From Anaerolineae bacterium (GTDB lineage: Bacteria; Chloroflexota; Anaerolineae; B4-G1; SLSP01): DNA of 64,000 bases. Position numbers and translations under genes: made by a program. The notes beneath the pieces were generated by a model. That model saw nothing but the letters and a program-made list of their open reading frames with translations, made no database searches and had not been told where the DNA came from. Below, one piece after another: positions 2,312-53,742 of this stretch; position 1 is the first letter of the stretch, and every line of letters starts with the position of its first letter. Where the stretch lies: the NCBI GenBank assembly GCA_034435555.1, contig DAOTXC010000006.1, positions 1,435 to 65,434 on the forward strand, in the 5' to 3' direction.

Positions 2312-2333
2312 CCCCTCCCCCACACACATATCA

Positions 2334-2374: not shown

Positions 2375-2515
2375 CCACCGATTCACCCATCCCCAAAAGC
2401 TGGACTCTAATGAATTTCTAAGGTTGCGCTTATATTTTTCTAATGCACGTTGTTTATGATGAAAATGTAAACCGGACCGCGAGTCCAGAATTCAGATGTA
2501 AAAAGGAGGTGCAGT

Positions 2516-2965: not shown

Positions 2966-3145
2966 TCACCGAAAAATTGTAACTGCTCAGCTTGGCTCCA
3001 AGGGGATCGTCAGATCCCCGTCAAGTCAGATTTATCCAGGACCACATTGTTATAGCAGCCTGGAATTTGCTTGTGCATCCACGCCGGATCTGACGATCCG
3101 GCTAGAGCCTGAGTAGATACGAAAAATTACATGAGGAGGTGTGGT

Positions 3146-3583
3146 ATGTCTATGTGGGAACCGATGGGAGATTTAGTTTCGTTGCGTGATGCAATGAGCC
3201 GGCTGATGGAAGAGAGTATGGTGCCACGGCGCATCGCCCGTGCGGGCCAGCAGGAGCGCGCGTTGCGCATCCCGCTGGATGCCTATGCCACCGACGAAGA
3301 GCTCGTCATCCTGGCGACGGTGCCGGGGCTGGACCCCGACGATGTGGAGATCACGCTGGAGGGCGACACGCTCACGATTAAGGGCGAGCTCAAGTCGCCG
3401 TTGGAGAATGTGGATTATTTGATCCGCGAGCGCGCTTTTGGGCCATTCTCCCGCACCTTGCAGCTCAACGTGCCTGTCGAGGCCGAGCAAGCCGAGGCGC
3501 ACTTCGAGAACGGGGTGCTGACGCTTGTGTTGCCCAAGGCCCAGGCCGTGCGGCCCCGCGTCATCAAGGTGCAATCCAAGTAA
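3146..3583 (+). CDS. small heat shock protein, Hsp20/alpha-crystallin family (paralog)
   Basis: GAGGAGG RBS 6 nt before ATG 3146. Paralogous to 2516..2965 (MxxxxDLVSLRDAM..., GVLTLVLPK). Confidence 0.88.
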   Translation: MSMWEPMGDLVSLRDAMSRLMEESMVPRRIARAGQQERALRIPLDAYATDEELVILATVPGLDPDDVEITLEGDTLTIKGELKSPLENVDYLIRERAFGPFSRTLQLNVPVEAEQAEAHFENGVLTLVLPKAQAVRPRVIKVQSK

Positions 3584-3603
3584 ACACGGCCTGCTTACAC
3601 GCA

Positions 3604-3638
3604 CAGCGCAGAGCTTTTTAGCTCTGCGCTGTTTTGTT
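3604..3638 (+). terminator. rho-independent terminator
   Basis: cagcgcagagc-ttttta-gctctgcgctg stem followed by ttttgtt. Confidence 0.7.
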
Positions 3639-3658
3639 AGGGTGCTGGTTCGCGCCCG

Positions 3659-3790
3659 TTACCCAGGCAGAATGAGCATCACCGAAGTGGGCGTCGGGTC
3701 AATGCGCACGGGTGGGGTGATGGAGACGACAACGCTCAAGATCATGCTCAGCAGAATCATCACGGTGATGATGAGGAAGATGATCTGCAT
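3659..3790 (-). CDS. candidate 43-aa hydrophobic small protein (MQIIFLIITVMILLSMILSVVVSITPPVRIDPTPTSVMLILPG)
   Basis: Read directly from the minus strand. A single TM-like segment with a weak SD (aaaggg). Below the ORF-track length cutoff. Confidence 0.2.
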   Translation of the reverse strand: MQIIFLIITVMILLSMILSVVVSITPPVRIDPTPTSVMLILPG

Positions 3791-24252: not shown

Positions 24253-24368
24253 AGGTACAATCACGACACGCAGCACAGGTACAATTCCTATGTGACTTTG
24301 GCACACCAACAGTATTGAAACGTCGCTCGGACTGCCAGTCCGCGTTACGACTATTTTGGAGGAAACAA

Positions 24369-27300: not shown

Positions 27301-27737
27301 ACCTCACACAACTGCAACACCTCGATCTCCCCAACACCCCAGTCAGCAACTTACGCCCCCTCGCCGCCCTCACCCAACTGCAACGCCTGGATCTCAAATA
27401 CACCCAGGTAAGTGACCTCAGCCCGCTTGCCGATCTTACGCAACTGCAACGCCTGGATCTCGACCGCACCCAAGTCAGCGACCTCAGCCCACTTACCGAC
27501 CTCACACAACTGCAACGCCTGGATCTCGAAGGCACCCAAGTCAGCGACCTCAGCTCACTCACTGCCCTCACCCAACTGCATAGTCTAGCTCTCCGCCACA
27601 CCCAAGTCAGCAACCTACGCCCGCTGGCAGCGCTGCCGGCCCTGCGCTATGTGCTTGTAGACAAGCACATAGATATCACCCCTCTTCGCCACCGTCACGA
27701 GCTCCAAATTACTTACGAATTGCGTGAGTATAGATGA
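24369..27737 (+). CDS. NACHT-family STAND NTPase with C-terminal leucine-rich repeats (bacterial NLR-like protein)
   Basis: GGAGG RBS 6 nt before ATG 24369. N-terminal helical domain of about 270 aa. NACHT motifs present: Walker A GEAGSGKTTLL, Walker B KALILVDGVDE, YIVTSRP and NPLLCALLCAL. At least 14 tandem 22-aa LRRs (LTQLQRLDLxxTxVSDLSPL). Confidence 0.85.
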   Translation: MSLAETLIVTLGRSIANALVKRWLSKEPAQTLTSNLIDLAAKEGQRRFKGHQELQRVEQLGEHIAEQLRPLVENFRLLPNEREALIFEVATTLKEAEISAEQLLALQLDHKALARRLRKARPEATLTLSAAQTEHYEQLLDQAALAILKISAEFPSYQRLLDTRQLQEHAALIEVVNAILYRPAGEDAQFRNAYQRQIQRKLERAEESGAPRLEELSKDQSLSVAYVELKVTYPTAEDRDAPPQAADFLSHADRREGHPTERTCAASELLADTRRLVLRGEAGSGKTTLLQWLALRAAHGDFPKQMANWNDHVPFLIRLREYVNADFPTPEQFVEKLTSTIAGTMPHGWVHRQLEAGKALILVDGVDELPEAQRPAMLERLQDLLETYPLARYIVTSRPPALKAERWPEWNDWIAGAGFTEAALQPMSQAQYEAFIARWYQALPENTAQRAEGAAHLQRLLRQRPSLRRLATNPLLCALLCALHKKRGDNLPTVRLQLYRESVEILLESRDTKRGVPVNADYPKLSLDQQLALMRSFAGYLLRNGYTDIDIAQADQHFANRLAFMSLPPEVTGERVRRFFVERTNLLHEPVVGRVDFRHRTFLEYLAADQIVEDDEFGLLKTHTNDDQWREVVILAAGLARRNESEDLLTWLLEQGPLGSLLAVACLETVVELSPAVREAVLTRARELLPPQDSDQVTLYAAAGPSLVPLLAPDPAHDAQARLRCIEVLGRIGGEAARQQLARYAQDYAQRKSEEHDLQETHALATAWANFDPETYAREVLTYLPELWCEGVPFDNLGPFATLTQLQTLILKILLVSNLSPLANLTKLQRLALMHMPVDDLTPLRTLTQLQRLDLLQTPVSNLRPLSPLTQLQALSLISTQISDLHQLANLTQLQSLDLSGSPVSDLSPLANLRQLQSLVLGGAPVSDLSPLAALTQLQRLDLGYTRVSDLSPLTDLTQLQCLDLGYTRVSDLSPLTDLTQLQHLDLPNTPVSNLRPLAALTQLQRLDLKYTQVSDLSPLADLTQLQRLDLDRTQVSDLSPLTDLTQLQRLDLEGTQVSDLSSLTALTQLHSLALRHTQVSNLRPLAALPALRYVLVDKHIDITPLRHRHELQITYELREYR
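26775..27650 (+). repeat. 66-bp tandem DNA repeats encoding the LRR array
   Basis: Near-identical 66-nt units (...cagcgacctcagcccacttaccgacctcac(a/g)caactgcaacgcctggatct...) are visible directly in the sequence. Confidence 0.8.
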
Positions 27738-31251: not shown

Positions 31252-34200
31252 ATGCGTAAAGGTATGCTCTTTGTAGGAACGCTAATATTGGCCGCGCTCT
31301 TGCTCGTCGCCCTGTTGGCCGGACTTGAGCGAGCCGAGGCCGCCCCCACCCTGCCCACGCCGACGGGCTGCGTCGTCGTGTCGGCCAACATCATCACCGA
31401 TACGATTTGGGACGGTGATTGTTATCTCGTGACCACCGACACGGTCGCCATCATGCCCGACGTCAGCCTTACCATCACACCCCCGCTCAGTGGAACTCTG
31501 GTGCGTTTCCAGCCCGGCGCGCAGTTGCAGGTCTTGGGCACGTTGCAAGCCCTGGGGACGGAGACCCGTCCCATCACCTTCACCTCGGCAGCCGCCACGC
31601 CCGTACCCGGCGATTGGATCGGCATCATCCTGGAAGATGACGCACAGAACGACCGGGACATCATCCGGTACGCTGTCATCGAGTACGCCCGCACGGGGGT
31701 CAAAGTCAACGACGAGGACTTCGTGGAACTCACGCACAACCGCTTCCGCTACAACGGCGGGCCAGGCCCCCGCGATGGCGCGATCAGTGGGGACGCCGAC
31801 AACGCCACCATCACGCACAACGTCATCCACGACTGCCGCAACGGGCTGTCACTCAACGAATCCTTCAACAACGTGATCAGTCACAACAGGCTCTATAACA
31901 TCGAGGCGTATGGCATCCGCCTCTTCGCCGCCACGACCTCCGGCGGCTCGTCCAACCAGATCACCCACAACGAGATTCACGATTGCCAGCTGGCGGCGCT
32001 GCGCCTGGAGATCGGTTCGCAGAACGTGGTGCTGAGCAACACGCTCTATCTCAACGCTGGCAGCGCGGCCATCTTCGTGGATCAGGCGCTCAGCCGCTTC
32101 GAGGGAAATCTGGTCATCGCCAACGGCGCGCCCGGTTACGGCGGCGCGGTCGTGGTGACGGACACCTCCACGCTCTCGGCGATCAGCCGCAACATCATCC
32201 ACGACCCGCACGGCGACGCGCTCGCCTACGATGCCAGCGCGCCATCGCCGGTTCTCGCCACGGCGGGGAACGCCCTCTGCGCGCCGGCGGGCTACGCCTT
32301 GAACAACGGAGCAGGCAACGTGAGCGCGCCCACGAACTGGTGGGGCGCGAACGATCCGGCGGCGGCCATCTTCGGCCCGGTGGACGCCAGCAATCCCATC
32401 ACGCTGGCGCTCGCGGCGGAGGCGATCACGCTCCCCGCCGACGGCCACGCGACGGCGCTGCTCACCGTGACCTTCCGCGCCCCGGATGGGACGATTGTCC
32501 CTGCGCTGCCGCCCGGCGCGCCGGGCTTCGCCCCCGACCCGCGCGAGATCGCGCTGACGACGAGCCTGGGGACGCTCAGCGCGCCCGCTGTCGCCATTGA
32601 TGCGCAGGGCGAGGCCCTCTTCGCACTGACCGCGCCCACCACAGCGGGCACGGCGGTCGTCACTGCGACGGGCTTCTGCGGCTACCCGGTCACGGCAACC
32701 GTGACCTTCGCCGCGACCGACATCGCCATCACCAAGACCACCGCCATCACCGAAGCGGCGCTAGGGGAACCGATCACCTACACGCTGCACTACGCCAACC
32801 TGAGCGGCAGTCTCGCCAGCCATGTCCTCCTCACCGACACGCTGCCCACCGGCACGCACTACATCGCCGATAGCAGCGGGCTTTCGGTCACGTTGCTGCC
32901 GAGCGAGGTGGTCTGGGCGCTGCCCGATCTCGCGCCCTCGGCGACGCACACCTTCACGCTGGTGCTCGGCATCGAGGAAGCGCCCGAACTCTGCGACGCC
33001 ACGCTGGTCAACACGGCGACGCTCACCACCGCCACGGAGGACACCGATCCAAGCAACAACCTCGCCGTCGCACCGCCTGTCGCCATCACTTGCCCCGGCT
33101 ACGTGGACCTGGTCGTGGTGAAGGATGACAATGTCGGCCCGCTGACCGCCTATCACGCGACGGACACGCCACTAGGACAATGGCTCCACAGCGTGCGGCC
33201 CGTCACGGCCCACCGCGAGTTCGTCTACGAGGGCGATTTCGTCACCTATACGATTGCGCTCTTCAACGATGGGCCGGAGACCGCCACCGGGATCATCCTC
33301 ACCGAGACGCTGCCGCTCCACACGACCTACGTGGAGCGGGGCTTCGGCTGGATCGCCGTGGATACGCGCACCTACACCCTCGCCGCGCCCCCGCTCGCGC
33401 CCGGCGAGGGATTCCTCACCTACATGGTCGTGCAGGTGGGCGAAACCCTGCCCGAAGGCGTAAACAACCTGGTCAACCTGGTCTGCGCCTTCGCCGCCGA
33501 GCCGGAGCTCGACCCGAACGATAATTGCAACTACGAGGATACGCCCGTCGTGCGGCGCGCGCTGCGGGTCTCCAAATCGGCCCCGATGTGCATCTCGCCG
33601 GGGCAGGCCTTCTACTACACGCCGCGCTACACGAACACCAACAGCCTCACCGGCTACACCAACGTCCCCCTCACCGACACGCTGCCGGCCTACGTGAGCT
33701 ACGCGGGATCGCCTGTGGGGAATTGGAGCTGCGCCGGCGGCGTCTGCACCGCCACCCTCCCGGAGATCCCCGCCAACACGAGCGCCCGTGGGCCGGTGCT
33801 GCCCGTCCAGCTCAGCGCCGCCTATCCCCTCACCGGCACAGGGCTGATTACCAACACCATCGAGATCAGCGGCGGGTTCCGCTTCGTGCTGGTCTCCACC
33901 GTGGATCTCGGCCCCGATCTGGTTGTGGTGAAGAACGACAACGTCGGGCCGACGCCGCGCGCGACGGCCTTCCTCCAGCAGCAGATCGAGCGGCAGCTCT
34001 ACGGCGCGCCGCGCGCGACCAGCGCCGCAGTGCGGGAGTACGTCCGTCCCGGCGAGATCATCAGCTACACGATCCTCTACGTCAACAGCGGCGTGCTGAC
34101 GGCGACCGAGGTGGTGCTCACCGAGCATCTGCCCCAGTACACGCGCTACCTGGGCGGCGGCTGGGACGATGCGGGCGGCGGGCGTTACACGCTCGCTGTG

Positions 34201-35403
34201 GGCGATCTGGCCCCTGGTCAGGGCGGCGAGGCAGTCTTTATGGTCGAGGTGATTGACCCCTTCCCGCTCGGCGTGGATCGGGTGCTCAACCGCGTGAACA
34301 TCGCCGGCGCGGAGGTGGAATGTGATACCACGAACAACACCTCCTACGACGATACGCCGGTGCAGACCGCGACGCGGCTCTACGTCGCCGCGCGCGACTC
34401 GGAAACGATTGAGGTCTTTGCTGGGACCAATTTCGCCTCGCTGGGTGCATTCGACGCCGGCCCCATCCCCTTCGGCATGGCGGCCTGGGATGGGCAGCTC
34501 TACGTCGCCAACTTCGAGGATGCCACCTTCACCAGCACCGTCTCCAGCTTCGATCTGACCACCCACGCGCCCATCCACACCGTGGATGTGGGACGGCATC
34601 CCACCTACCTGGCGGCGCTGAACGGGCGCATCTACGTCACCAACCACAGCGGCGGCGAGGGCATCACCGTTATTGATGCAGCAACCGGCGCGGTCATCGC
34701 GCGGCTCAGCCCGAACCAGCCGGGCGTCTACGACTTCGGCTTCTTCGGCATCACCGCCGACACAGCTCGGAATCGCATCTACACCACCAAGCGCTACATG
34801 GGCGGCATGGGGCTGTGGGTCATCACGCCCACAGCCAGCGGCTACACCTTCGAGCAAGCCATCGCCACGGACGCCACGCCGTACGCTGTGGCCTATAATC
34901 CCAACAACGATCGCATCTACATCACCTTCGCCCAGCTGAACGAGCTGCGCGTCTACGACGCCGAGACGCTGACCCAGGTCGCCGCCTACGCGACCGGCGT
35001 GCAAGACCCCAACGATCCCGGCTATGGCGGGCAAGGGTTGGCGGTGATGGGCGAGTGCGCCTACGTCAGCAACTACGCGGCAGGCTCAATCACCGTGGTG
35101 GCCGAAGGGCCATGCTGGGAAGGAGAACGGCCCGAGGCAGGACCAGCGCCCGGCGTCCCCCTCAGCGGCGATCACCGCCTTTACCTGCCGCTGGTGCTGC
35201 GCGGGATGCAAACGTATCCCAACATCCGCACCGTGCCGGTGGAAGGCCGCCCGAAGGGGCTGGCTGCGCAGGATGGGCTGATCCTCGTCACCTTGCCGGA
35301 GGAAAATCGCGTCGTGGTGCTTGATGCGCAATTGCTCCAGATCGTCCGGGAGATTCTCGTGGCAGGAGAACATCCCCACACACTCTTGTTGACCGAGCCG
35401 TAA
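31252..35403 (+). CDS. large secreted surface protein: right-handed beta-helix (PbH1) + DUF11 repeats + YVTN-type beta-propeller
   Basis: Signal peptide MRKGMLFVGTLILAALLLVALLAGLERAEA. Repeated (I/V)THNxIHDC beta-helix turns. DLVVVK(D/N)DNVGP DUF11 starts. C-terminal LYVANF…IYVTNHSGG YVTN repeats. 1383 aa. Confidence 0.65.
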   Translation: MRKGMLFVGTLILAALLLVALLAGLERAEAAPTLPTPTGCVVVSANIITDTIWDGDCYLVTTDTVAIMPDVSLTITPPLSGTLVRFQPGAQLQVLGTLQALGTETRPITFTSAAATPVPGDWIGIILEDDAQNDRDIIRYAVIEYARTGVKVNDEDFVELTHNRFRYNGGPGPRDGAISGDADNATITHNVIHDCRNGLSLNESFNNVISHNRLYNIEAYGIRLFAATTSGGSSNQITHNEIHDCQLAALRLEIGSQNVVLSNTLYLNAGSAAIFVDQALSRFEGNLVIANGAPGYGGAVVVTDTSTLSAISRNIIHDPHGDALAYDASAPSPVLATAGNALCAPAGYALNNGAGNVSAPTNWWGANDPAAAIFGPVDASNPITLALAAEAITLPADGHATALLTVTFRAPDGTIVPALPPGAPGFAPDPREIALTTSLGTLSAPAVAIDAQGEALFALTAPTTAGTAVVTATGFCGYPVTATVTFAATDIAITKTTAITEAALGEPITYTLHYANLSGSLASHVLLTDTLPTGTHYIADSSGLSVTLLPSEVVWALPDLAPSATHTFTLVLGIEEAPELCDATLVNTATLTTATEDTDPSNNLAVAPPVAITCPGYVDLVVVKDDNVGPLTAYHATDTPLGQWLHSVRPVTAHREFVYEGDFVTYTIALFNDGPETATGIILTETLPLHTTYVERGFGWIAVDTRTYTLAAPPLAPGEGFLTYMVVQVGETLPEGVNNLVNLVCAFAAEPELDPNDNCNYEDTPVVRRALRVSKSAPMCISPGQAFYYTPRYTNTNSLTGYTNVPLTDTLPAYVSYAGSPVGNWSCAGGVCTATLPEIPANTSARGPVLPVQLSAAYPLTGTGLITNTIEISGGFRFVLVSTVDLGPDLVVVKNDNVGPTPRATAFLQQQIERQLYGAPRATSAAVREYVRPGEIISYTILYVNSGVLTATEVVLTEHLPQYTRYLGGGWDDAGGGRYTLAVGDLAPGQGGEAVFMVEVIDPFPLGVDRVLNRVNIAGAEVECDTTNNTSYDDTPVQTATRLYVAARDSETIEVFAGTNFASLGAFDAGPIPFGMAAWDGQLYVANFEDATFTSTVSSFDLTTHAPIHTVDVGRHPTYLAALNGRIYVTNHSGGEGITVIDAATGAVIARLSPNQPGVYDFGFFGITADTARNRIYTTKRYMGGMGLWVITPTASGYTFEQAIATDATPYAVAYNPNNDRIYITFAQLNELRVYDAETLTQVAAYATGVQDPNDPGYGGQGLAVMGECAYVSNYAAGSITVVAEGPCWEGERPEAGPAPGVPLSGDHRLYLPLVLRGMQTYPNIRTVPVEGRPKGLAAQDGLILVTLPEENRVVVLDAQLLQIVREILVAGEHPHTLLLTEP

Positions 35404-35923: not shown

Positions 35924-36622
35924 ATGAAATACAATCGAAAACAAACAAGTTGGCTGATGGGATTGACCACCGCGCTGCTGATCGCGCTGTTACTGCCGAG
36001 CGTCACGCTCGCCGCCGGAGGACCGCCTCCGGATCGTGGAAATGCTGCTTCCGGGCAGATGGGCACTATCGGGACGCTGGATGAAGCTACCGAGGCCGCG
36101 CTCGTTGAGGCGCTGGAGGAAGAATATGGCGCGCTCGCGCTCTACCAGGGGATCATCGCCGACTTCGGCGAGGTCGCGCCATTCGTCGCTATCGCCCGCT
36201 CGGAGCAACAGCACGTCAACGCTCTGCTGCGCCTCTTCAGCCGCTACGAACTGACCGCACCCGCTGCACCCGCCTTCGATACGCTGCCCAGCTTCGACAC
36301 GCTGGAAGCGGCCTGTGAGGCCGGCGTCGCCGCCGAGATCGCCGATGCCGCGCTCTATGACACGCTCCTCGAAAGCGTAAGCGCCCCGAACGTCGTCCGG
36401 GTCTTCACCCGCTTGCAGGCCGCCTCGCTTGAGCAGCACCTGCCCGCCTTCGAGGCCTGCGCCAGCGGCGAACCTTACGTCGGTGAGGGGCCAGCCACGC
36501 AGACGATGGCAATGAATCAGGGGCAGAATCGCCCCGCCGAGTTGAATGCGCTGGGCGAGCAACTCCAGCAGGGCTTGCGCAATCTCATGCGCAACGCGGG
36601 GGAGGCGCTCTGCGGACGCTAA
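35924..36622 (+). CDS. secreted ferritin-like DUF2202 family protein
   Basis: GGAGG RBS. Signal peptide. EEEYGALALYQG…ARSEQQHVNALLRLF ferritin-like helices. Confidence 0.55.
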   Translation: MKYNRKQTSWLMGLTTALLIALLLPSVTLAAGGPPPDRGNAASGQMGTIGTLDEATEAALVEALEEEYGALALYQGIIADFGEVAPFVAIARSEQQHVNALLRLFSRYELTAPAAPAFDTLPSFDTLEAACEAGVAAEIADAALYDTLLESVSAPNVVRVFTRLQAASLEQHLPAFEACASGEPYVGEGPATQTMAMNQGQNRPAELNALGEQLQQGLRNLMRNAGEALCGR

Positions 36623-43932: not shown

Positions 43933-46900
43933 TTAACGGCTTCCCAGGACGTTGTGCAATGCTTCACACGCCGGGCAGCCCCCGCCGGGTCGGATAATCG
44001 CGTAGCCGTCCTGCGGGTCGTACTCATAGCGCACGAAGTCAATGTTCCACACGATGATGCACCGCACCATGCCGGTGTTCGCCCCCAGGCTTGCAGCCTC
44101 GGCCAGCCAGGCCGCCTGCTGCGCGTTGTTGATACCCCGCGCCCAGGCGAAAGCATCGGAGAAGGTCGGGACGCCCTCCTGGGAGGCATAGCCCATCTCG
44201 GTATAGAAGACCTGCCGCTGCCCACGGAAGATGTTGTAGTAGAGCTCCGTCTGCGGCAGGAAGTACCAGGAGTGGTGCGTGCTGCCGGTTGGGTGGCCGC
44301 TGCGCGCCGAAGGCGCGGTCGCGCCCGCGTTATGGTGCGCGCCGATGTAGTCCATACAGTTGGCCGCGCCCGCGTTGTACAGGCCCTCCATCCACGGCTG
44401 ATCGTCACACCCGTTGGGGCCACAGCCGCCGAAGTAACCGGTCGGCGCCGGGGCCGCGCTGATGACCGCGCTACCCGGGTTCGCCGCCTTGATAGCTCGA
44501 TAGGAAGCGCACAGGAGATTGGTGTAGGCTTGCGGGCTGATGTGCCCGATTTGCCACTCGCGATCAATGTTCGGCTCGTTCCATACCTCGATGGCGTCAG
44601 CGCCGGCGGCGGCCAAGCTCGCCACCCAGTTAGCATAATCCTGCTCGAAGCCGGGCTGCGTCACCATACCGGGGCCACCGATAGCGCTCACCTGAATCTT
44701 GAAGCCGCGCGCGTGCGCCGCGTTGATGAGCCAGGAGGGATCGTCACCGTAGTGGACCTGCACTTTGGCCCAGTTCATCCCAGAGTAGTGCATCAGCTCG
44801 GCGTAGGGGAAGGCGTAATCGCGGATGTGGCCGCCCAGCTCGAAGCTGCCGCCAGCGACCGGTGTGACCGGCCCCGGGGCGGGCGCAGGCGCAGCCTGCT
44901 CCTCGCCTGCAGCGATGACTACCGTGACGCCGCCGCCGCTGATTTGCGTATTCCCCACCGCCAAGGCCCAGACACCTGTGAAGTTACCGTCCCTGTCGGG
45001 CGCGGTCATCTCCACGCTGATGTCCACCTCAGCGCCGACCGCCACAGACCCCACCTCGACCGAATTCGCCGAGGTCATCTGCTCACCGCGCACGTAGACC
45101 AAAACGGTATTCTCCGGCCAATCCTCCGAACCGGAGTTGCGCAAGCGCCAGGTCTTGGTGAAGGATTCCCCCTTCTCGAAGCGCGTGTTGTCGGGGACGG
45201 TCACATCGGTCACGAAGGCCGCCGCCAACCCCGCCGTCGTCGCGGGCGTGTCGTCCTCAGGCTCCTCAGGTTCATCGTCCTCAAGCTCAGTTTCGCCCGT
45301 TGCCACCGCCTGCGAATCGGCCACGATCAAGGAGACATCACCGCGCTCCTGACCATCCACACTCACCGCGATGCGGTAGGTGCCGGTGATCTCCGGCGCG
45401 GTCCAGGTGAAGCTGGGCTGATCGAAGGTCGCCGTTGTCCGTATCTGCTGTCCGGCCGGGTCGGAGACCTGCCAAACGATTTCGGGCAGCGTGTAAGTCG
45501 TGGTGGGCGCTTGCGCCTGATACACATCCAGCACCTCCAGAATCCCCGGCACGTTGCCCGCATCCAGGATGTCATTGACGACCACTGCGCCCAGGTGATA
45601 GCGCGCCGCGAGATCGAGGCGGGTGCGCAAGAACTGCGGCGTCCCCAGCCAGATCTGCCGACCCACCGCCAACACCTTGGCCGCGCCGGTGGTCGCATCC
45701 ACCTCGGTGGAGACCACCGGGGAGAGCTGGAAGTTCAATGCCGTGCCAGGCTCCACCGACTCGCCATTCAATTGCGGGGCCTGCAAATCGCCGATGGGCA
45801 GCGCCTCGGTCATCGGCAGCGTGGTCTCCCCATCCGTGCTCAGGGTCGTGTAGACAGGGGCCAGGGAATAGCGGCTGACCTGCGTGGTTCCCCAGGCCAA
45901 GAGCTGCTCGGCCTCGCCGCCGGGCGTGTAAGCCTCCGGCGAGAGGGGCATCAGCACCCGCACCTGATCGGCAGCGACGCCCAACCCGCGCCAGGCATAG
46001 CCGCCCGTGTCCCAGGAGCCATCAGCGTTGCGCACCGGCGTCTCGACGGTTACAGCCAGCCAGACCCCATACTCGTGCAGGGAGTCGGCCAGCGCCCCAA
46101 CGAGCGCCAGATAGGTCTCGCGCTCCGTGCGCTCCAGCCCCCGGTAGTCGAGCACGACGCCAGCATAGCCACCATTGCGCACCAGCGCCGTCACATTCTC
46201 GACGTGCGCCACGCGGTCCGCCTCGATGTTGAGCATATCGCGCACCAGGCCCACATTGGCAGCGTGCCCAGGAACCCAGTTACGCACGACCACGGCCAGC
46301 GGCGCGCCGCCCGCCCCCCCATTGGGGAGCGCCGTTGGATCGCCCACCAGCGATCCCAACGTGCCCAACATCATCCCGGTGATATTGAACTCGGTCAGCG
46401 CCCCGGTCGGCCCGGTGGGCAACCGTTCCGCCACATTGGTCGCCAACGCCTGCACAACCGGCTGGGTTTGCACCACCATCACGGCGCTCGGCAAGCGCGT
46501 CGTCTCAGCAACCAGGACTTCTGGCTCATTCGCGCGGTCAATGCGCGCGGGCATCCAGTACCAGGCGGCCCCATCCCAACCGTAGAGATCCAACGTCTCC
46601 CACGGCTCTGCCTCGTTGGGGACAATCACCTCAAGAACGATGGGGCTATCGCCCTCACCGCGCCATTCGAGGGTGTAGTAGGGGCTTTTGGGGACAAGCG
46701 AGCTGGGCAGCGATTCACGCGCCGCCGCTACCGCTTCATTCTGGGTATTGAGAAAGTCGGCGCGCGGCACCGATCCCAACCGCAACCGCACATCGCTGGC
46801 TGCTTCGAGATTGACGGCAACGCCATTTTGACGCAGCGTGTTCGCTACCTCCTCCGACATCATCTTCACGGTCAAGCCGTCGGGATGGGTGAGCGAGGGA

Positions 46901-47283
46901 TTGCGAGCGTTGAGCGTCTCATAACCGCTGCCATCGGCGATGTGCGCCCAAAGGGAAATCGGGGGAATGGAGATGAAGAGCAGGAAGATCAACACCAGGC
47001 CAACCACGACCAACCAGCCGCGCCCTTGTAGCGCGTTGCGCAACTGCGTGACGCTGCCGCCAAGACGCGCCAACGGCGTCGGCTTGGAAGACTCCATCGC
47101 TTCCAGGCTGACCAAAGCGGGGCCACCCGCACTTGAAGCAGGCTCCGCCACACTCTCAGCAGCCGATGCGGACTCCGTTGGGAGAGCTGCTGCTACTACC
47201 GGGGCCTCTGTCGCCGTCGCTTCGCTCGCGCCAGCGCCCACATCCGTTTCAACGATCTCATTTGGCTGAATATTTTCAGTCAT
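43933..47283 (-). CDS. membrane-anchored multidomain glycoside hydrolase (GH18-like + NBR1-like Ig domain + clan GH-A/GH5-like C-terminal domain)
   Basis: GGAGG RBS before ATG 47283. Single N-terminal TM. NBR1/FW-like segment (FEKGESFTKTWRLRNSGSEDWPENTVL). C-terminal AIEVWNEPN catalytic-acid motif of clan GH-A. Confidence 0.55.
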   Translation of the reverse strand: MTENIQPNEIVETDVGAGASEATATEAPVVAAALPTESASAAESVAEPASSAGGPALVSLEAMESSKPTPLARLGGSVTQLRNALQGRGWLVVVGLVLIFLLFISIPPISLWAHIADGSGYETLNARNPSLTHPDGLTVKMMSEEVANTLRQNGVAVNLEAASDVRLRLGSVPRADFLNTQNEAVAAARESLPSSLVPKSPYYTLEWRGEGDSPIVLEVIVPNEAEPWETLDLYGWDGAAWYWMPARIDRANEPEVLVAETTRLPSAVMVVQTQPVVQALATNVAERLPTGPTGALTEFNITGMMLGTLGSLVGDPTALPNGGAGGAPLAVVVRNWVPGHAANVGLVRDMLNIEADRVAHVENVTALVRNGGYAGVVLDYRGLERTERETYLALVGALADSLHEYGVWLAVTVETPVRNADGSWDTGGYAWRGLGVAADQVRVLMPLSPEAYTPGGEAEQLLAWGTTQVSRYSLAPVYTTLSTDGETTLPMTEALPIGDLQAPQLNGESVEPGTALNFQLSPVVSTEVDATTGAAKVLAVGRQIWLGTPQFLRTRLDLAARYHLGAVVVNDILDAGNVPGILEVLDVYQAQAPTTTYTLPEIVWQVSDPAGQQIRTTATFDQPSFTWTAPEITGTYRIAVSVDGQERGDVSLIVADSQAVATGETELEDDEPEEPEDDTPATTAGLAAAFVTDVTVPDNTRFEKGESFTKTWRLRNSGSEDWPENTVLVYVRGEQMTSANSVEVGSVAVGAEVDISVEMTAPDRDGNFTGVWALAVGNTQISGGGVTVVIAAGEEQAAPAPAPGPVTPVAGGSFELGGHIRDYAFPYAELMHYSGMNWAKVQVHYGDDPSWLINAAHARGFKIQVSAIGGPGMVTQPGFEQDYANWVASLAAAGADAIEVWNEPNIDREWQIGHISPQAYTNLLCASYRAIKAANPGSAVISAAPAPTGYFGGCGPNGCDDQPWMEGLYNAGAANCMDYIGAHHNAGATAPSARSGHPTGSTHHSWYFLPQTELYYNIFRGQRQVFYTEMGYASQEGVPTFSDAFAWARGINNAQQAAWLAEAASLGANTGMVRCIIVWNIDFVRYEYDPQDGYAIIRPGGGCPACEALHNVLGSR

Positions 47284-47751
47284 GTACTTATCCTCCATAA
47301 CCTTAACTTAGCCTATGCTAAGAAAAACCGCCGACATTGTATCACATGGCCCCAGAATGGCAAGGGTAAATCCAAATTTCAAAAAATAGTATTTAAAGAT
47401 ATAAAACATGCGAACGCGAGAAGCGGGGGATGAACGGGGGCGGAAAAAGAGGGGGGATACGTAACGGGTGATGAGGCGATTTATTAACGCCACCCATTTT
47501 CCCATCACCCTTTACCCTCTCCCAGAAAAGCCCATCGCCCCCGGCACGCAAGCTAGAATATGCTATAATAGAAGGTGGTTTCTTTGCTACACGAGGAAAT
47601 TCATCTCCCTTATCGAAGTGGGCCAACCGCACTTCCCAAGTGATCGCCCGACGCGCCCCTAGGGGCTTGATGTATTTCCCCGTTGGAACGACCGCCTGAG
47701 GGCATCAAACAGGCGCATCTCATCACGCCAAGAGCGAAAGGAGTAAGAAAA

Positions 47752-48855
47752 ATGGACGAACACAAAATGCCCATCACGGTTATTGGAGCAGGTCACGGCG
47801 GCAAAGCGATGGCCGCTGATCTGGGGGCGCGCGGCTTCCAGGTGACGCTCTACAATCGCACGTATAGCCACATTGAAGTCATCGCCCTGCGAAAGGGCAT
47901 CGTGCTACTTACCGAAGACGGACGAGAAAACTTCGCCCCCATCCACAAAGTCACCTCTGAGATGGAAGAGGCACTGCAAGATGCCAAGCTGATCATGGTG
48001 GTGATCCCTGCCTTCGGCCACCGCGACGTTGCGTTTCAGGCAGCGCCCTATTTGCGAGACGATCAAGTCGTCGTGCTGAATCCGGGACGCACTGGCGGCG
48101 CGCTGGAGTTCGCGCAGGCCCTCCACGAGAGCGGCACACCGCATCGCCCCATCATCTGCGAAGCAGAGACCTTCCTCTTTGCCTCGCGCAGCATCGGCCC
48201 CGCCGAGGCGCGCATCTTCCGCACCAAATTCTCGGTGCCCGTCGCCGCCCTGCCCACGACCCACACAGAAGAAGCCCTGGCAATGCTGAACGTCGCCTAC
48301 AGCCAATTCATCCCCGCCAAAAGTATCCTCAACACCAGCATGAACAATATGGGTGCCATCTTCCATCCGGCGCTAACGCTGCTCAACGCCGGATGGATCG
48401 AAAGCACCCTCGGTAACTTCCAGTTTTATATGGAGGGCGTCACCCAATCTACGGCCCGCGTGCTGGAAGTCCTGGATCGCGAGCGTGTCACGGTCGCATC
48501 GGCGCTGGGAATCCAGGCTCAAACCGCACGCGAATGGCTCTATCGCGCTTACGCAGCCCAGGGCGACACACTCTTCGAAGCGATGCGCGCCAATCCCGGC
48601 TATCAGGGCATCAAGGCCCCCAACCGCCTGCAACACCGCTACATCTCTGAGGAGATACCGTGCAGCCTCATCCCCATCGCGCTGCTGGGCAGACAGTATG
48701 GCGTCGAGACACCCACCATGCACACCATCATCCATCTGGCTAACATCGTACATGGCGTAGATTATTGGAGTCGAGGCCGCACACCGGAGCGCCTGGGCAT
48801 CCAGGGGATGTCAGTACAAGAACTCCATCGCTATGTCAAGACTGGCGAACGCTAA
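47752..48855 (+). CDS. NAD(P)-dependent opine (octopine/nopaline) dehydrogenase-family oxidoreductase
   Basis: AAGGAG RBS. N-terminal Rossmann ITVIGAGHGGKAMA. Length and pattern typical of the Octopine_DH family. Confidence 0.55.
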   Translation: MDEHKMPITVIGAGHGGKAMAADLGARGFQVTLYNRTYSHIEVIALRKGIVLLTEDGRENFAPIHKVTSEMEEALQDAKLIMVVIPAFGHRDVAFQAAPYLRDDQVVVLNPGRTGGALEFAQALHESGTPHRPIICEAETFLFASRSIGPAEARIFRTKFSVPVAALPTTHTEEALAMLNVAYSQFIPAKSILNTSMNNMGAIFHPALTLLNAGWIESTLGNFQFYMEGVTQSTARVLEVLDRERVTVASALGIQAQTAREWLYRAYAAQGDTLFEAMRANPGYQGIKAPNRLQHRYISEEIPCSLIPIALLGRQYGVETPTMHTIIHLANIVHGVDYWSRGRTPERLGIQGMSVQELHRYVKTGER

Positions 48856-48875
48856 TTCGGCCCCCCTGAAACACA

Positions 48876-48912
48876 CTCCCGGCAGTTCTTCCGAATCGCC
48901 GGGAGTTTTTGG
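48876..48912 (+). terminator. rho-independent terminator
   Basis: ctcccggc-agttcttccgaat-cgccgggag followed by ttttt. Confidence 0.75.
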
Positions 48913-49094
48913 TATAGTTGCGCATTCCGCAAAAACGAATAAAGTTAGGCACAGTTCATTGTGGCAAGCAGAGCAAACGCGCCGCGCCACGATTGTTTTT
49001 GGGGCTGAAGGACGACGCGAATATTGTAACCGGTAGTCTTTGGGCAACGATAGAAAAGATTTTGAGATTTGCTGATTTTCAATGGAGGTACGTT

Positions 49095-50735
49095 ATGCGA
49101 ATTCTGGCCGGCGCCCTGGGCGATTGTGTGCACGTGGCCGGCGTGACGCGCTTTCTCAACCTGGCCGCCCAACAGGGCCACGAGACGCGCTTCACCGGCC
49201 CCGCCACCGATGTCGAGGCCTTTATTGATCTGGCGCACGCCTTCAACCCCGATCTTATCGGCGTGAGCTACCGCCTGACACCGGAGAACGCCCGGCATGT
49301 GCTGAAAGAGTTCTGGCGTCTGGTCGAGGCCGCCGGCCTGCAAGGACGACGCTTCGTCTTCGGTGGGACGCCGCCCGTGGCCGCCATCGCGCGCGAGCTG
49401 GGCGGCTTTGAGGCCGTCTTCGATGGCAGCGAACCACCCGACGCCGTGATCCGCTACCTGCGCGGCGAGACCCTCGACGCCGCCGAGGAGACGCCGCCCC
49501 CCCAAGAGACCATCGCCCGCATCCGCTGGAAAGCACCCTACCCGCTGCTGCGCCACCACTTCGGCATTCCGGCGCAGACCATCGCGCCCACCGTGGCGGG
49601 CATCGCACAAATCGCCGCCGCCGGCGCGCTCGATGTCATCTCCCTCGGCGCGGATCAGGATGCCCAGGCACACTTCTTCCGCCCTGACCTGCAAAATCCC
49701 GCCAGCAAGGGGGCCGGCGGTGTCCCCTACCGCACCGAGGACGATCTCCGCGCACTCTACGCCGCCAGCCGGCAGGGCAACTACCCGTTGCTGCGCTCCT
49801 ACTCCGGCACCGCCGACCTGCTCCGCTACGCCGACACCCTCCGCCGCACCCTCAACAACGCCTGGTGCGCCACCTCGCTCTTCTGGTTCAACGCGATGGA
49901 CGGACGCGGCCCGCTCAGCCTCGAGGTGTCGTTGCGCGATCACCTCGCGCTCATGGCCTGGCACGGCGAGCGCGACATCCCCGTCGAGGGCAACGAACCC
50001 TACCACTGGGGGATGCGCGATGCCCCCGACGTCATCTCCGTGGCGGTCTCCTACCTCTACGCCTACAACGCCAAAAAGGCCGGCGTGCGCGACTACATCA
50101 CCACCTACATGTTCGAAAGCCCGCCCCTGCTCTCCAACCGCATGGACCTGGCAAAGGCCCTGGCCCAGATCGCAGTGGCCGAATCCTTTGTAGATGATAC
50201 CTTCCGCATCTGGCGGCAGACGCGCACCGGCCTGCTGAGCTACCCGGTGAACGTACCCCGCGCCCGCGCCCATCTGGCCGAATCCGTCTACCTGCAGATG
50301 GCCCTTCAGCCTTCCCTCATCCACATCGTGGGCTACACCGAGGCCGATCACGCCGCCACCGCCGATGAGGTCATCGAATCGGCAGCGATGGCCCGGCAGG
50401 TCATCGCCACCGCCCTCCAGGGCCAGCCGGACATGACCGCCGATCCGCGCATCCAAGCGCGCATCGCCACGCTGGTTGAGGAGGCCCATGTACTGCTTGA
50501 GGCCATCCGCAAGCTGGGCGCCGATGCCGCCGAAGATCCCTTAAGCGACCCCGCGACCCTGGCCCGCGCAGTGCAGGTCGGCCTGTTGGATGCGCCGCAG
50601 CTCCGCCGCAACCCCTTCGCCCGTGGCGAGATTCGCACCCGCGCCGTGGATGGCGCTATCGTCGCTGTGGACGAAAACGGTCAGCCGCTCTCCGAAGCGG
50701 ACCGCATCCGCAAGTTAGGGTTGGGGCTGATATAG
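49095..50735 (+). CDS. cobalamin-binding domain (GlmS/MutS-like) fused to a glutamate mutase E (methylaspartate mutase epsilon)-like domain
   Basis: GGAGG RBS 6 nt before ATG 49095. N-terminus MRILAGALGDCVHVAG…VSYRL…FGGTPP mirrors the B12-binding DxHxxG…SxL…GG Rossmann domain starting at beta-1 as in GlmS. C-terminal ~410 aa show GlmE-like blocks (…LLDAPQLRRNPFARGEIR…). Confidence 0.45.
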   Translation: MRILAGALGDCVHVAGVTRFLNLAAQQGHETRFTGPATDVEAFIDLAHAFNPDLIGVSYRLTPENARHVLKEFWRLVEAAGLQGRRFVFGGTPPVAAIARELGGFEAVFDGSEPPDAVIRYLRGETLDAAEETPPPQETIARIRWKAPYPLLRHHFGIPAQTIAPTVAGIAQIAAAGALDVISLGADQDAQAHFFRPDLQNPASKGAGGVPYRTEDDLRALYAASRQGNYPLLRSYSGTADLLRYADTLRRTLNNAWCATSLFWFNAMDGRGPLSLEVSLRDHLALMAWHGERDIPVEGNEPYHWGMRDAPDVISVAVSYLYAYNAKKAGVRDYITTYMFESPPLLSNRMDLAKALAQIAVAESFVDDTFRIWRQTRTGLLSYPVNVPRARAHLAESVYLQMALQPSLIHIVGYTEADHAATADEVIESAAMARQVIATALQGQPDMTADPRIQARIATLVEEAHVLLEAIRKLGADAAEDPLSDPATLARAVQVGLLDAPQLRRNPFARGEIRTRAVDGAIVAVDENGQPLSEADRIRKLGLGLI

Positions 50736-50922: not shown

Positions 50923-53742
50923 GTGTCCGAGATTACCCTGCTGGAATACGAAACCGAAGTTGATGAGCTCATCGAAGAGGCGCGTTACCTCGAGGCGCTG
51001 GCGCATATCCGGCACATCCTCAGCCAGTACCCCCGCTACATCGGGGCCTACTACCTGCTGGGCAAAACGATGCTGGAAGCCGACCTGCCCGAGCTCGCCA
51101 TGGATATGTTCCGGCGCGTTCTTTCTGCCGACCCGGAGCACCTGCTGGCGCGGATCGGGCTGGGCATGGCCCACCTCCAGCGCGAGAACATCAATGGCGC
51201 AATCTGGAATCTCGAACGGGCCTTCGAGCTCAACCCTAGCAACCAGGACATCGCCGAAGAACTGCGCCGTCTTTACGGTCGCCGCGACGGTCTGGAGCCG
51301 CCACACGCGCCCCTCACCCAGGCCGGCCTGGCGCGGCTCTACCTCCGTGGCAATCTCTACAACCGCGCGGTCGAAGTATTGCAGAATCTCATCGTCGAGG
51401 AGCCTCAACGCGCCGACCTGCACCTCGCGCTCGCCGAGGCCTACTGGCGCGATGACCAAATCGTCCAGGCCTCCGACGCCTGCCAGCAGACCCTCGACCA
51501 CCTCAAATACTGCCTCAAGGCGAACCTGATCCTCGGCAACCTGTGGCTCGATAGCGGGCAGGAAGAGGGCGAACGCTATCTCAAGCGCGCCCAAGAGACC
51601 GATCCCACCAACCAAATGGCGCAGGAGCTCTTCGGCAGCCAGTCGGCCCTCAAACCACAGACCGTCTCGCTGGAACGGCTCACCTATCAGCCCGAAGCCA
51701 TCCCCGTTGACCGCGAATCCGCGTGGTTCAAACACCTGGAGAACACCTCGGTTTCTATCGGCATCTCCGAGGCGATGCCCGAAATGACCGACAGCGAGAT
51801 GCGCCTTGTGGATATCACCGCCGCTCTCGAAGCCCAGATCGAAATCCCCGACTGGCTCCGCGACATGGGGCCGCTGGATGGGGGCGATACCGACAGCTGG
51901 ATGGACGAGTTGGCTGCCATCGAGGAGACCGCCGCGCCACAGGATGACACCTTCTGGCTCGATGAGGCCGAAGCCCCCGCCGCAGCCGTAGCGGAAGAGG
52001 AAGGCATCCCCGATTGGATGCGCGAGCTCGAGCCTGCCGCCGAGGCCGAACCCTCCGCGCTTCTCGATGAAGATATCCCTGATTGGATGCAGGACCTGGA
52101 ACCTAGCCAGGATGCCAAAGCCAAGGCTGCCTGGATGGATGAGCTCACCGCCGCCGAAGAGGCCGTTGAGGATGAAAAAGCGCCCGACTGGCTCGGCGAG
52201 CTCCAGGCCCCCGATGAGACCGAAGCCGACGCCATGTTCGGCTGGGACTCCTTCGCTACCGAGGAAGAAGAGGTCGCTGAAGAGGAAGCGGGAGAACTCC
52301 CCGATTGGCTGCGCGAACTCGAACCCGCCGCTGAAGAAGCCATCGCCGACGAGGACGAAGAGGTCCCCGATTGGCTCAGCGAACTCCAGGTCCCCGACGA
52401 GGCCGCCGCGCTCCCCGAAGCGCCCGCCGCTGCCACCGAAGCCGACGCCATGTTCGGCTGGGACTCCTTCGCTGCTGAGGCTGAGGAGGAGGAAGTCGCC
52501 GAAGAGGAAGCAGGAGAACTCCCCGATTGGCTGCGCGAACTCGAACCCGCCGCTGAAGAAGCCGTCGCCGACGAGGACGAAGAGGTCCCCGATTGGCTCC
52601 AAGAAATCTCTGAGCCAGACACAATAACTGAAGAAGAAGAAGAACTGCCCGACTGGTTACAGGAACTCGCACCACCCACCGATGAGGAAGTCCTCGCGAC
52701 CGTGGATGAAGAGGAGCTACCAACCTGGTTGGATGAAATCCAGATCCCGGAAGAGCTAACCCTCCCCGAGCCTGAGCCTGAGCCGGAACCCGCCGCCCCC
52801 GACCTCGAGGGCGACATGCTCTCCGGCGACGACGCCCTCGCCTGGCTCCAGAGCCTCATCGCCGGCAAGGAAGACGAACTCCGCGCCCAGGTCGAGCAGG
52901 AGAGCGCCGCCCGCACCGCCGAAATCCTCGGCCGCAAGCCCGCAGCCCCCGCTCCCGAACCGGAGCCGGAGACCCCGGTCGCCGTGGCGGAACCCGAACC
53001 CGAACCCGAACCGGAGCCGGAACCCGTCGCCCCCGACCTCGAGGGCGACATGCTCTCCGGCGACGATGCCCTTGCCTGGCTCCAGAGCCTCACCGCCGGC
53101 AAGGAAGACGAACTCCGCGCCCAGGTCGAGCAGGAAAGCGCTGCTCGCACCGCCGAAATCCTCGGCCGCAAGCCCGCCGCTCCTGCCCCAGAACCGGAGC
53201 CGGAACCGCCGGTCGCCATTGCTGAACCAGAAGCAGAAGAGGACTTCTTCGGCTGGTCCACACTCAGCGAGGAAATGCCCGAACCTCCCGCGGTGCAACC
53301 GCAAGAACCCAAACCGCTCACCTCCTTTGGGTTCACAGATTTTGAAGAGGAAGCCCAGGCCGAGGTCGTTGAAGTCGAGCCGGAACCCGAACCAGAGCCA
53401 GAGCCAGAGATTGAAGCTCCCGCACCCGCAGCCGCGCCGGAGACCGAACTGGACGCAGCCCGCGCGCATGTCGCGGAGCACGAGGACGATTATCGCGCGC
53501 GCATCGCACTGGCCCGCGCCCTTTGGCAGGCGGACGAAATCACCGAGGCGCTGGAACATTACAGCGTCCTGATTCGGGTCAACCAGCGGATGGAAGATGT
53601 CATGGCCGATTTGAAGCGGTACGCCGCCGACCAGCCCCGCAACACCCCACTCTTGCGCACCCTGGGCGATGCCTACATGAAGAACGGCCTGGTCAACAAG
53701 GCGCTCGATGCCTACAAGCGAGCGATGCAATCCTATCGCTGA
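50923..53742 (+). CDS. TPR-repeat protein with long acidic PDW(L/M)-repeat low-complexity core
   Basis: AGGAGG RBS 6 nt before GTG 50923. N- and C-terminal TPR helices. About 10 (I/L)PDWL(R/Q)EL(E/Q)P motifs, PEPEPEPEP runs and two ~80-aa near-identical segments. Confidence 0.6.
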   Translation: MSEITLLEYETEVDELIEEARYLEALAHIRHILSQYPRYIGAYYLLGKTMLEADLPELAMDMFRRVLSADPEHLLARIGLGMAHLQRENINGAIWNLERAFELNPSNQDIAEELRRLYGRRDGLEPPHAPLTQAGLARLYLRGNLYNRAVEVLQNLIVEEPQRADLHLALAEAYWRDDQIVQASDACQQTLDHLKYCLKANLILGNLWLDSGQEEGERYLKRAQETDPTNQMAQELFGSQSALKPQTVSLERLTYQPEAIPVDRESAWFKHLENTSVSIGISEAMPEMTDSEMRLVDITAALEAQIEIPDWLRDMGPLDGGDTDSWMDELAAIEETAAPQDDTFWLDEAEAPAAAVAEEEGIPDWMRELEPAAEAEPSALLDEDIPDWMQDLEPSQDAKAKAAWMDELTAAEEAVEDEKAPDWLGELQAPDETEADAMFGWDSFATEEEEVAEEEAGELPDWLRELEPAAEEAIADEDEEVPDWLSELQVPDEAAALPEAPAAATEADAMFGWDSFAAEAEEEEVAEEEAGELPDWLRELEPAAEEAVADEDEEVPDWLQEISEPDTITEEEEELPDWLQELAPPTDEEVLATVDEEELPTWLDEIQIPEELTLPEPEPEPEPAAPDLEGDMLSGDDALAWLQSLIAGKEDELRAQVEQESAARTAEILGRKPAAPAPEPEPETPVAVAEPEPEPEPEPEPVAPDLEGDMLSGDDALAWLQSLTAGKEDELRAQVEQESAARTAEILGRKPAAPAPEPEPEPPVAIAEPEAEEDFFGWSTLSEEMPEPPAVQPQEPKPLTSFGFTDFEEEAQAEVVEVEPEPEPEPEPEIEAPAPAAAPETELDAARAHVAEHEDDYRARIALARALWQADEITEALEHYSVLIRVNQRMEDVMADLKRYAADQPRNTPLLRTLGDAYMKNGLVNKALDAYKRAMQSYR
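51840..53420 (+). repeat. in-frame tandem and dispersed DNA repeats encoding the acidic repeat region
   Basis: The ~230-bp duplications at ~52795..53030 and ~53030..53260 are near-identical at the DNA level, as are shorter repeats around 52230..52600. Confidence 0.7.

Follow-up and report, generated by a model that had tools for sequence, protein, structure and literature searches.

What reaction could be catalysed by a protein that joins a vitamin B12-binding domain to a glutamate mutase-like barrel in one chain, and that keeps the cofactor-handling residue of that enzyme but none of its glutamate-binding residues? The question is raised by a gene at positions 49095-50735 of a 64,000-nucleotide stretch of the Anaerolineae bacterium contig DAOTXC010000006.1 (the window, meaning the whole stretch that was analysed). 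Its product of 546 amino acids (aa), here called the mutase, is encoded beside an opine dehydrogenase. Our preferred answer, to which we assign a probability of roughly 0.6, is that the mutase is an uncharacterised adenosylcobalamin (AdoCbl) isomerase working with the opine dehydrogenase on an amino-acid-like substrate. Together, the two enzymes probably catalyse a B12 reaction not described before.

Architecture and active site of the mutase

The gene and its predicted parts are the following.

49084..49088 (+), Shine-Dalgarno GGAGG, 6 nt before ATG 49095
49095..50735 (+), stop codon counted, mutase gene, 546-aa single chain, B12-binding and GlmE-like (translation, homologues, AlphaFold2 model)
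49095..49469 (+), cobalamin-binding Rossmann domain, aa 1-125, starting at beta-1, no helical cap (Pfam PF02310, Foldseek)
49122..49142 (+), D10-C11-V-H13-V-A-G16, read as CxHxxG (family alignment, alignment to MutS)
49266..49277 (+), S58-Y-R60-L61, counterpart of SxL (alignments to family and MutS)
49359..49367 (+), F89-G90-G91, GG motif (family alignment)
49515..50732 (+), GlmE-like TIM barrel with C-terminal subdomain, aa ~141-546 (AlphaFold2, Foldseek, alignments, PF06368 in relatives)
50340..50342 (+), Glu416, conserved counterpart of GlmE Glu330, adenosyl ribose contact (alignments; role from PMC4413051)

The open reading frame (ORF) 49095-50735 is a genuine gene. Its translation opens MRILAGALGDCVHVAG and contains VSYRL and FGGTPP, exactly as in the initial annotation, which had been made from the sequence alone. 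A longer version beginning at TTG 48918 was rejected as unnecessary, since GGAGG precedes ATG 49095 and the alignment of the homologues begins at the Met of this codon.

The initial annotation had read the protein as a fusion of a GlmS-like domain (S) with a barrel resembling the epsilon subunit of glutamate mutase, GlmE (E). The AlphaFold2 model, built with a 20-sequence alignment, has a pLDDT of 90.7 and a pTM of 0.80. The N-terminal part passes PF02310 at aa 2-104 (36.4 bits against a gathering cut-off of 32.1). Its fold matches in the PDB (Foldseek) include GlmS (1i9c_A, TM-score 0.74), the small subunit of 2-hydroxyisobutyryl-CoA mutase (4r3u_C, 0.80) and 1y80 (0.82), with corrinoid proteins also among them. 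The B12 fold of this domain is thereby confirmed, and it has no cap, an arrangement shared with AdoCbl isomerases like GlmS or MutS.

For the remaining ~420 aa Pfam gave no match, PF06368 included. Searches of PDB sequences with the protein, with the family profile and with the barrel of the relative P0126 returned B12-domain matches only and no GlmE. In the model, the barrel strands lie at aa 151-155, 181-184, 232-236, 258-260, 297-299, 333-340, 371-378 and 408-410. The best whole-chain Foldseek matches in the PDB were glutamate mutase epsilon subunits (6h9e_B, E 2e-15 over 445 columns; 1cb7_B, E 7e-15), with ~440 aligned columns and TM-scores of 0.58-0.67. A second tier consisted of lysine 5,6-aminomutase KamD and ornithine 4,5-aminomutase OraE (E ~1e-10), and a third of methylmalonyl-CoA mutase (MCM) and 2-hydroxyisobutyryl-CoA mutase (E 1e-7 to 1e-6). 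All whole-chain matches were AdoCbl isomerases, and there was no methyltransferase barrel among them. PF06368 was matched weakly by 10 of 20 family members (best E 4e-7), and only P0126, which is 45% identical, clears its gathering score, by a small margin (27.5 against 26.6 bits, model positions 21-383). The C-terminal subdomain aligns with GlmE by plain hmmsearch. The GlmE-like blocks noticed earlier are invisible to Pfam and PDB sequence searches of this protein and are borne out by its fold and by its relatives. Since the fold matches and PF06368 in the relatives agree, we consider the S-E reading correct, and the mutase is predicted to be a one-piece fusion of a B12-binding domain and a GlmE-type barrel. 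Neither outcome that would have overturned the initial annotation, a C-terminal part unrelated to GlmE or an N-terminal part lacking the B12 fold, was obtained.

No curated family or solved structure covering the mutase was found in the NCBIfam and PDB searches. NCBIfam gave sub-threshold matches only, every one of them to a B12-binding protein or domain. NF002612 scored 10.9 and so failed its curated threshold of 110, and the equivalogs for mutase subunits scored far under their cut-offs.

A natural S-E fusion had been expected to be unusual. We found it to be widespread, though uncharacterised, with at least 6,783 clusters of homologues at 90% identity and 762 representatives at 50%. The family occurs in at least 594 species genomes. 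Most belong to Anaerolineae or other Chloroflexota and some to Bacillota, and one carrier, Bellilinea caldifistulae, is in culture. A sister clade of ~610-aa proteins has members in Rikenellaceae and Clostridiales metagenome-assembled genomes and in gut and rumen metagenome contigs. The plasmid collection that we searched held no homologues of the mutase. Public names of the 90% clusters are "cobalamin B12-binding domain-containing protein", "methionine synthase" and "MCM cobalamin-binding subunit", and others read "hypothetical" or "cobalamin-binding protein". About 30 positions of the family alignment are invariant and many more are nearly so, mostly in the barrel domain.

The cobalt-ligand motif had been described as non-canonical, with the His-Asp spacing shifted by one residue. 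It is indeed non-canonical, but a simple shift of Asp does not account for it. Cys11, His13 and Gly16 are nearly invariant across the family alignment and Asp10 is not. In 46 representatives the residue three positions before the His is D in 17, N in 12, E in 9, S in 3, Q in 2, P in 2 and G in 1; it is often acidic and not conserved. Since the profile alignment to MutS (1BE1) pairs Cys11 with Asp14, as it pairs His13 with His16 and Gly16 with Gly19, we take the canonical Asp of DxHxxG, the residue that hydrogen-bonds the ligand His, to be replaced by Cys11, giving CxHxxG. Among the fetched proteins, CxHxxG is found in 164 family members and the canonical DxHxxG in 12, all of the ~610-aa sister clade. 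His13 is the presumed lower cobalt ligand. In the second motif an invariant Arg60 occupies the Leu position of SxL, which here reads SxR. Ser58 lies 45 residues past His13, a spacing identical to that in MutS. In the 549-aa homologue P0153 the Cys-x-His motif is gone (GDPKYTNE) and the barrel alignment places an Arg where the mutase has Gln191; this homologue may have degenerated or diverged.

To compare the active sites, the Clostridium cochlearium sequence of 1cb7_B was used as the GlmE reference. Equivalences were taken from barrel-only MAFFT L-INS-i and MAFFT E-INS-i alignments and from an hhalign comparison of the core and sister-clade profile with a GlmE profile (E 0.0037, 426 columns). 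A full-length global MAFFT alignment put GlmE onto the B12 domain and was discarded except for its C-terminal part, and hhalign with narrow profiles gave weak alignments only. Residues of GlmE and their putative counterparts are listed here.

Arg66, His155, replaced
Gly68, Gly157, conserved
Asp96, Asp187, conserved
Arg100, Gln191, replaced
Asn143/Pro145, Asn229/Pro231, conserved
Arg149, Tyr236, replaced
Gly151-Thr152-x-Asp154, Gly238-Thr239-x-Asp241, conserved
Glu171, Ala256, replaced
Lys326, Val412, replaced
Glu330, Glu416, conserved

In GlmE, Arg66, Arg100 and Arg149 form the "arginine claw" that grips both carboxylates of the substrate, Glu171 hydrogen-bonds the substrate amine and Tyr177 touches the acrylate fragment (PMC10947579). 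Glu330 contacts the ribose of the adenosyl group and promotes homolysis (PMC4413051). All three alignment methods concur on the positions of the claw, of Glu171 and of Glu330. A weaker hhalign alignment against the single GlmE sequence sets Glu171 against Ser/Pro261, and the position is acidic in no method. Glu416 hardly varies in either the core or the sister clade, and His155, Gln191, Tyr236 and Ala256 are themselves conserved in both. Judged by these alignments, the cofactor-handling residue is kept and the glutamate-binding residues are all replaced. Since the claw arginines and Glu171 have given way to other residues that are conserved in turn, the mutase is predicted not to be a glutamate mutase, and the initial annotation was right to leave its substrate open. 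Two invariant arginines, Arg153 and Arg234, lie on the same strands two residues ahead of the Arg66 and Arg149 positions and could still serve to bind an alpha-carboxylate. Glutamine in the place of Arg100 suggests a substrate whose distal group is something other than a free carboxylate.

The opine dehydrogenase and the wider neighbourhood

Upstream of the mutase gene lie two further features.

47752..48855 (+), CENDH-type opine dehydrogenase gene, start at TTG 47683, ATG 47752 or ATG 47767 (PF02317, 1BG6)
~48876..48915 (+), terminator-like hairpin with T-run, in the 239-nt spacer between the two genes

The opine dehydrogenase matches PF02317 (Octopine_DH) with 162.7 bits (E 8e-48), and Arthrobacter N-(1-D-carboxylethyl)-L-norvaline dehydrogenase (CENDH; 1BG6) over the full length with E 7e-66. 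Its His, Arg and Glu align with CENDH His202, Arg292 and Asp297, which we take to be the catalytic residues. The initial annotation was correct about both neighbours, the opine-dehydrogenase-like gene upstream and a tetratricopeptide repeat (TPR) protein downstream, and treated the former as context only. We found instead a conserved partner. In 81 of 82 related loci (54-81% identity), the same strand carries an orthologue no more than 1.6 kb from the mutase gene. Since it stands upstream in 27 loci, mainly of the closest clade, and downstream in 54, of the clade with 55-60% identity, the adjacency has outlasted a change of gene order. An opine dehydrogenase gene also adjoins the distant relatives P0126 (upstream), P0174, P0221 and P0192. 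In the sister clade with DxHxxG it lies directly alongside, often with overlapping stop and start codons, and was present in 58 of 78 metagenome loci. Unbiased clustering of neighbouring ORFs, shadow ORFs excluded, found no other family in more than 17 of 83 loci. The opine dehydrogenase is therefore probably the conserved functional partner of the mutase, as far as gene linkage can tell.

The 239-nt spacer (48856-49094) is unusually long, as close relatives have gaps of 12-50 nt. It contains no conserved element, is not conserved in relatives and has a fold z-score of -1.39. A riboswitch-controlled leader was rejected, since the Rfam search, spacer included, gave no match and no cobalamin riboswitch. 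As for the terminator described earlier, the hairpin and T-run are present, but terminator-like sites in the window are no commoner than in shuffled sequence.

MutL/GlmL-family proteins are reactivation factors for glutamate mutase. A member of this family (PF13941, E 7e-167) adjoins the cassette of opine dehydrogenase and mutase in four loci, two from Bacillota with the order GntR-MutL-opine dehydrogenase-mutase and two from Anaerolineae with MutL adjacent (L038, L064, L011 and L012). In P0155 and P0170 the mutase continues at its C-terminus into a fused MutL. The link to MutL therefore favours AdoCbl radical catalysis over a methyltransferase or sensor role. In L012, genes for an OppBCDF-like transporter and an AAT-family (PF03417) hydrolase lie upstream, and the same context precedes the S-E-L fusion P0155. 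A DUF2202 gene lies directly downstream of P0155 (L084 7827-8699; L085 8174-9046), and the window has one at 35924-36622 (+), ~12 kb from the cassette; this may be a coincidence.

Recurrent extra genes of the core clade encode an AsnB-type asparagine synthase and a DUF5698/DUF2179 membrane protein, in 11 of 83 loci each. P0126 carries a fused GSH-S/RimK ATP-grasp domain, and a Peptidase_C26 gene comes after it. The 732-aa P0131 has a weak C-terminal match to Peptidase_M15_3, a cell-wall peptidase family. In the sister clade, where neighbours were identified by Pfam on cluster representatives from the 78 metagenome loci, the following recur.

L-amino-acid-ligase (LAL)-type ATP-grasp, directly upstream, 33/78 loci
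"sugar-transfer associated" ATP-grasp (ATPgrasp_ST), directly downstream, 25/78 loci
DegT aminotransferase, inside the cluster, 22/78 loci
Bac_transf, inside the cluster, 13/78 loci
GT2, inside the cluster, 11/78 loci
aldo/keto reductase, inside the cluster, 11/78 loci

Proteins that resemble RmlA and RmlB by sequence only, and an LPG_synthase_TM protein, recur as well. By their gene content these loci are polysaccharide biosynthesis clusters.

Further genes of the window were noted. Upstream of the cassette, 43933-47298 (-) encodes a 1121-aa protein with an N_BRCA1_IG Ig-like domain. A similar protein of ~1054 aa (522-3686) lies a few kb upstream of the cassette in the 81%-identical locus L001, with genes in between, so the synteny is loose. 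Downstream, the TPR protein (50923-53742, +, 939 aa) has an acidic Pro/Glu-rich middle with many "PDWL" repeats and a near-perfect duplication of ~70 aa (APDLEGDMLSGDDALAWLQSL.AGKEDELRAQVEQESAARTAEILGRKPAAPAPEPEPE). Farther away are a 1140-aa STAND NTPase with NNH1, NACHT and leucine-rich-repeat parts (24315-27737, +), a bacterial NLR-like architecture of the kind tied to anti-phage defence, and a xanthine-dehydrogenase-family molybdoenzyme with a fused [2Fe-2S] domain (27921-30902, +), which is followed by the gene for a 1383-aa DUF11/beta-helix surface protein (31252-35403, +).

Candidate reactions

Fold, motifs, replaced residues and gene linkage are what the analysis shows; AdoCbl use, radical chemistry and the class of substrate are what we infer. 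In the mechanism we propose, the N-terminal domain would bind AdoCbl base-off/His-on, with His13 on cobalt, and would close over the GlmE-type barrel. Substrate binding would set off Co-C homolysis, and the adenosyl radical, placed by Glu416, would take a hydrogen atom from the substrate. The substrate radical would undergo a 1,2-rearrangement, followed by hydrogen return. The adjacent opine dehydrogenase would make or consume the substrate or product of the mutase by NAD(P)H-dependent C-N redox chemistry. The substrate may be amino-acid-like or opine-like, and its distal carboxylate may be neutralised as an amide. It could be a compound of the glutamine or gamma-glutamyl-amide type, an amino acid of the opine type, or a 2-hydroxy acid. 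Ligases of the ATP-grasp or AsnB type might, in related clades, join the product to glycans or peptides of the cell envelope. Where Opp and AAT genes are present, the pathway may instead serve recycling.

A more specific version of this proposal is tentative, and we would sooner doubt it than rely on it. It holds that the pair performs an undescribed AdoCbl-dependent carbon-skeleton rearrangement of an amino acid modified at its nitrogen or side chain, for example a glutamine, gamma-glutamyl-amide or opine-type compound, and that ATP-grasp or AsnB-type enzymes ligate the branched product onto envelope glycans or peptides. The cysteine in place of aspartate would then be a new kind of lower-ligand tuning or redox-gating. 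A substrate of the glutamine, gamma-glutamyl-amide or opine type would explain both the change of Arg100 into Gln and the loss of Glu171.

Several points weigh against an AdoCbl isomerase that works with the opine dehydrogenase. Both cobalamin motifs have lost a canonical residue, DxHxxG its Asp and SxL its Leu, so that the mode of cobalamin binding could be altered or lost. The residue equivalences come from remote sequence alignments (hhalign E of 0.0037), and the region of Glu171, Tyr177 and Tyr181 is ambiguous between alignment methods. The spacer and its hairpin suggest that in this organism the two genes may be transcribed separately. Neither a MutL gene nor one for an adenosyltransferase or cobalamin turned up among the window ORFs scanned. 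The Opp transporter and AAT-hydrolase context of some relatives looks catabolic, and the evidence for a cell-envelope context is drawn mainly from the sister clade.

One alternative is an AdoCbl eliminase, which would use radical migration and elimination to produce a carbonyl, and the opine dehydrogenase would couple this reductively to an amine. Opine dehydrogenases require a carbonyl partner, and the residues found in the pocket instead of the claw (His, Gln, Tyr, Asp, Asn) typically bind hydroxyls or amines. However, known AdoCbl eliminases have large subunits of other families and no solved eliminase is among the top fold matches, which leaves this reading improbable. Similarly doubtful is an aminomutase that uses pyridoxal 5'-phosphate (PLP) and AdoCbl, like lysine 5,6- or ornithine 4,5-aminomutase, with the dehydrogenase oxidising the amine after its move, a role that Kdd and Ord have in the fermentation of lysine and ornithine. 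KamD and OraE have the next-best fold (E ~1e-10), Lys K354 is nearly invariant, and the pairing of a mutase with an NAD(P)-dependent dehydrogenase mirrors these pathways; the coupling of ornithine 4,5-aminomutase to its dehydrogenase (OAM/DAPDH) has been described (PMC4413051). Even so, GlmE beats KamD and OraE by five orders of magnitude in Foldseek E-value, and the partner here belongs to the opine dehydrogenases and is no diamino-acid dehydrogenase. In KamE and OraE the PLP lysine presumably sits 11 residues past the ligand His. In the mutase the residue 11 positions past His13 is Ala24, and no Lys is conserved within aa 14-30 of the family. An NCBIfam match to the lysine 5,6-aminomutase beta subunit (Lys_5_6_beta) points the same way as the fold, but at 16.5 bits against a cut-off of 280 an assignment from it was rejected.

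A fused but genuine glutamate mutase would convert glutamate into (2S,3S)-3-methylaspartate, and the opine dehydrogenase would then process the product, for instance by deaminating it oxidatively towards 2-oxobutyrate or by turning it into an opine. GlmE as the best structural match, PF06368 in relatives, the conservation of Glu330, G68, D96, N143/P145 and G151-T-x-D154, and the link of the cassette to MutL-type reactivases, which are typical of glutamate mutase operons, all speak for it. It is nevertheless a poor candidate, because the three claw arginines and Glu171 have become conserved His, Gln, Tyr and Ala and the NCBIfam equivalogs for mutase subunits stay far under cut-off. Methylaspartase also fails to appear nearby: as had been noted at the outset, no gene for it was found among the window ORFs scanned. 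A catalytically dead or repurposed protein, such as a B12 sensor or scaffold, would fit the Asp to Cys and Leu to Arg changes within the B12 motifs and the loss of the ligand His in P0153. It is very hard to reconcile with the ~30 invariant positions, mostly in the barrel, with the strict pairing with an enzyme gene and with the reactivases linked to the family. Least credible of all is a corrinoid methyltransferase or "methionine synthase". Some public annotations ("methionine synthase", "MCM cobalamin-binding subunit") say so, and the best PDB sequence matches of the B12 domain are corrinoid proteins, but these names mirror the B12 domain alone. The "methionine synthase" annotation was rejected, as Pfam and Foldseek show no cap (B12-binding_2) and no Hcy, pterin or MtaB-type barrel. 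Moreover, the whole-chain fold matches are all AdoCbl isomerases, the adenosyl-contact Glu is conserved and MutL is linked to the family. An AdoCbl isomerase acting with the opine dehydrogenase on an amino-acid-like substrate thus remains the reading that we prefer.

An active family would define a new B12-dependent reaction. To our knowledge, only about a dozen AdoCbl isomerase reactions are known, new ones being rare. It would also tie cobamide availability to the cell-surface chemistry of abundant uncultured bacteria. The cysteine at the Asp position of the cobalt-ligand motif has no precedent that we know of, and in an active family it would let the role of the His-Asp dyad be studied in a motif altered by nature. 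With a two-gene cassette and a cultured host, Bellilinea caldifistulae, these predictions are directly testable.

Comparison with known systems

We know of no opine dehydrogenase reported to work with a B12 enzyme. Our search of the open-access literature found no paper that pairs AdoCbl or B12 with an opine dehydrogenase or with "glutamate mutase-like". The partner gene itself is close to CENDH (1BG6), with homology over the full length (E 7e-66) and the counterparts of His202, Arg292 and Asp297 kept.

Among fused enzymes, isobutyryl-CoA mutase IcmF is likewise a single-chain AdoCbl mutase with an N-terminal B12 domain and a fused repair factor, which here is the MutL of some relatives. It differs in its CoA-ester-binding MCM-type barrel and its G-protein chaperone, whereas the present family has a GlmE-type barrel and an ASKHA-type reactivase. 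OraSE and KamDE share the AdoCbl architecture of barrel and Rossmann domain, and an NAD(P)-dependent dehydrogenase follows them in their pathways. In contrast to them, the mutase has no PLP lysine at the expected position, another domain order and a dehydrogenase of another family.

The closest system is glutamate mutase GlmS/GlmE (MutS/MutE; C. cochlearium, C. tetanomorphum; EC 5.4.99.1). Both have a cap-less B12 Rossmann domain and a GlmE-type barrel that ends in the same subdomain. They share the adenosyl-contact Glu and several scaffold motifs, and both are associated with MutL/GlmL-family reactivases, here in relatives only. Glutamate mutase is encoded by separate glmS-glmL-glmE genes together with methylaspartase, while the mutase is a single chain with S first and no methylaspartase context. 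The mutase further differs by its CxHxxG and SxR motifs, its replaced claw and Glu171, and its obligate opine dehydrogenase partner. Since the claw, Glu171, the profile cut-offs and the operon context all differ, membership among glutamate mutases fails. The general traits of AdoCbl isomerases are present, namely a cap-less B12 domain on a TIM barrel, the adenosyl-contact Glu and a reactivase in the lineage, though not in the window. The family keeps the catalytic scaffold of glutamate mutase with a rebuilt substrate pocket, and the mutase probably works like a glutamate mutase without being one.

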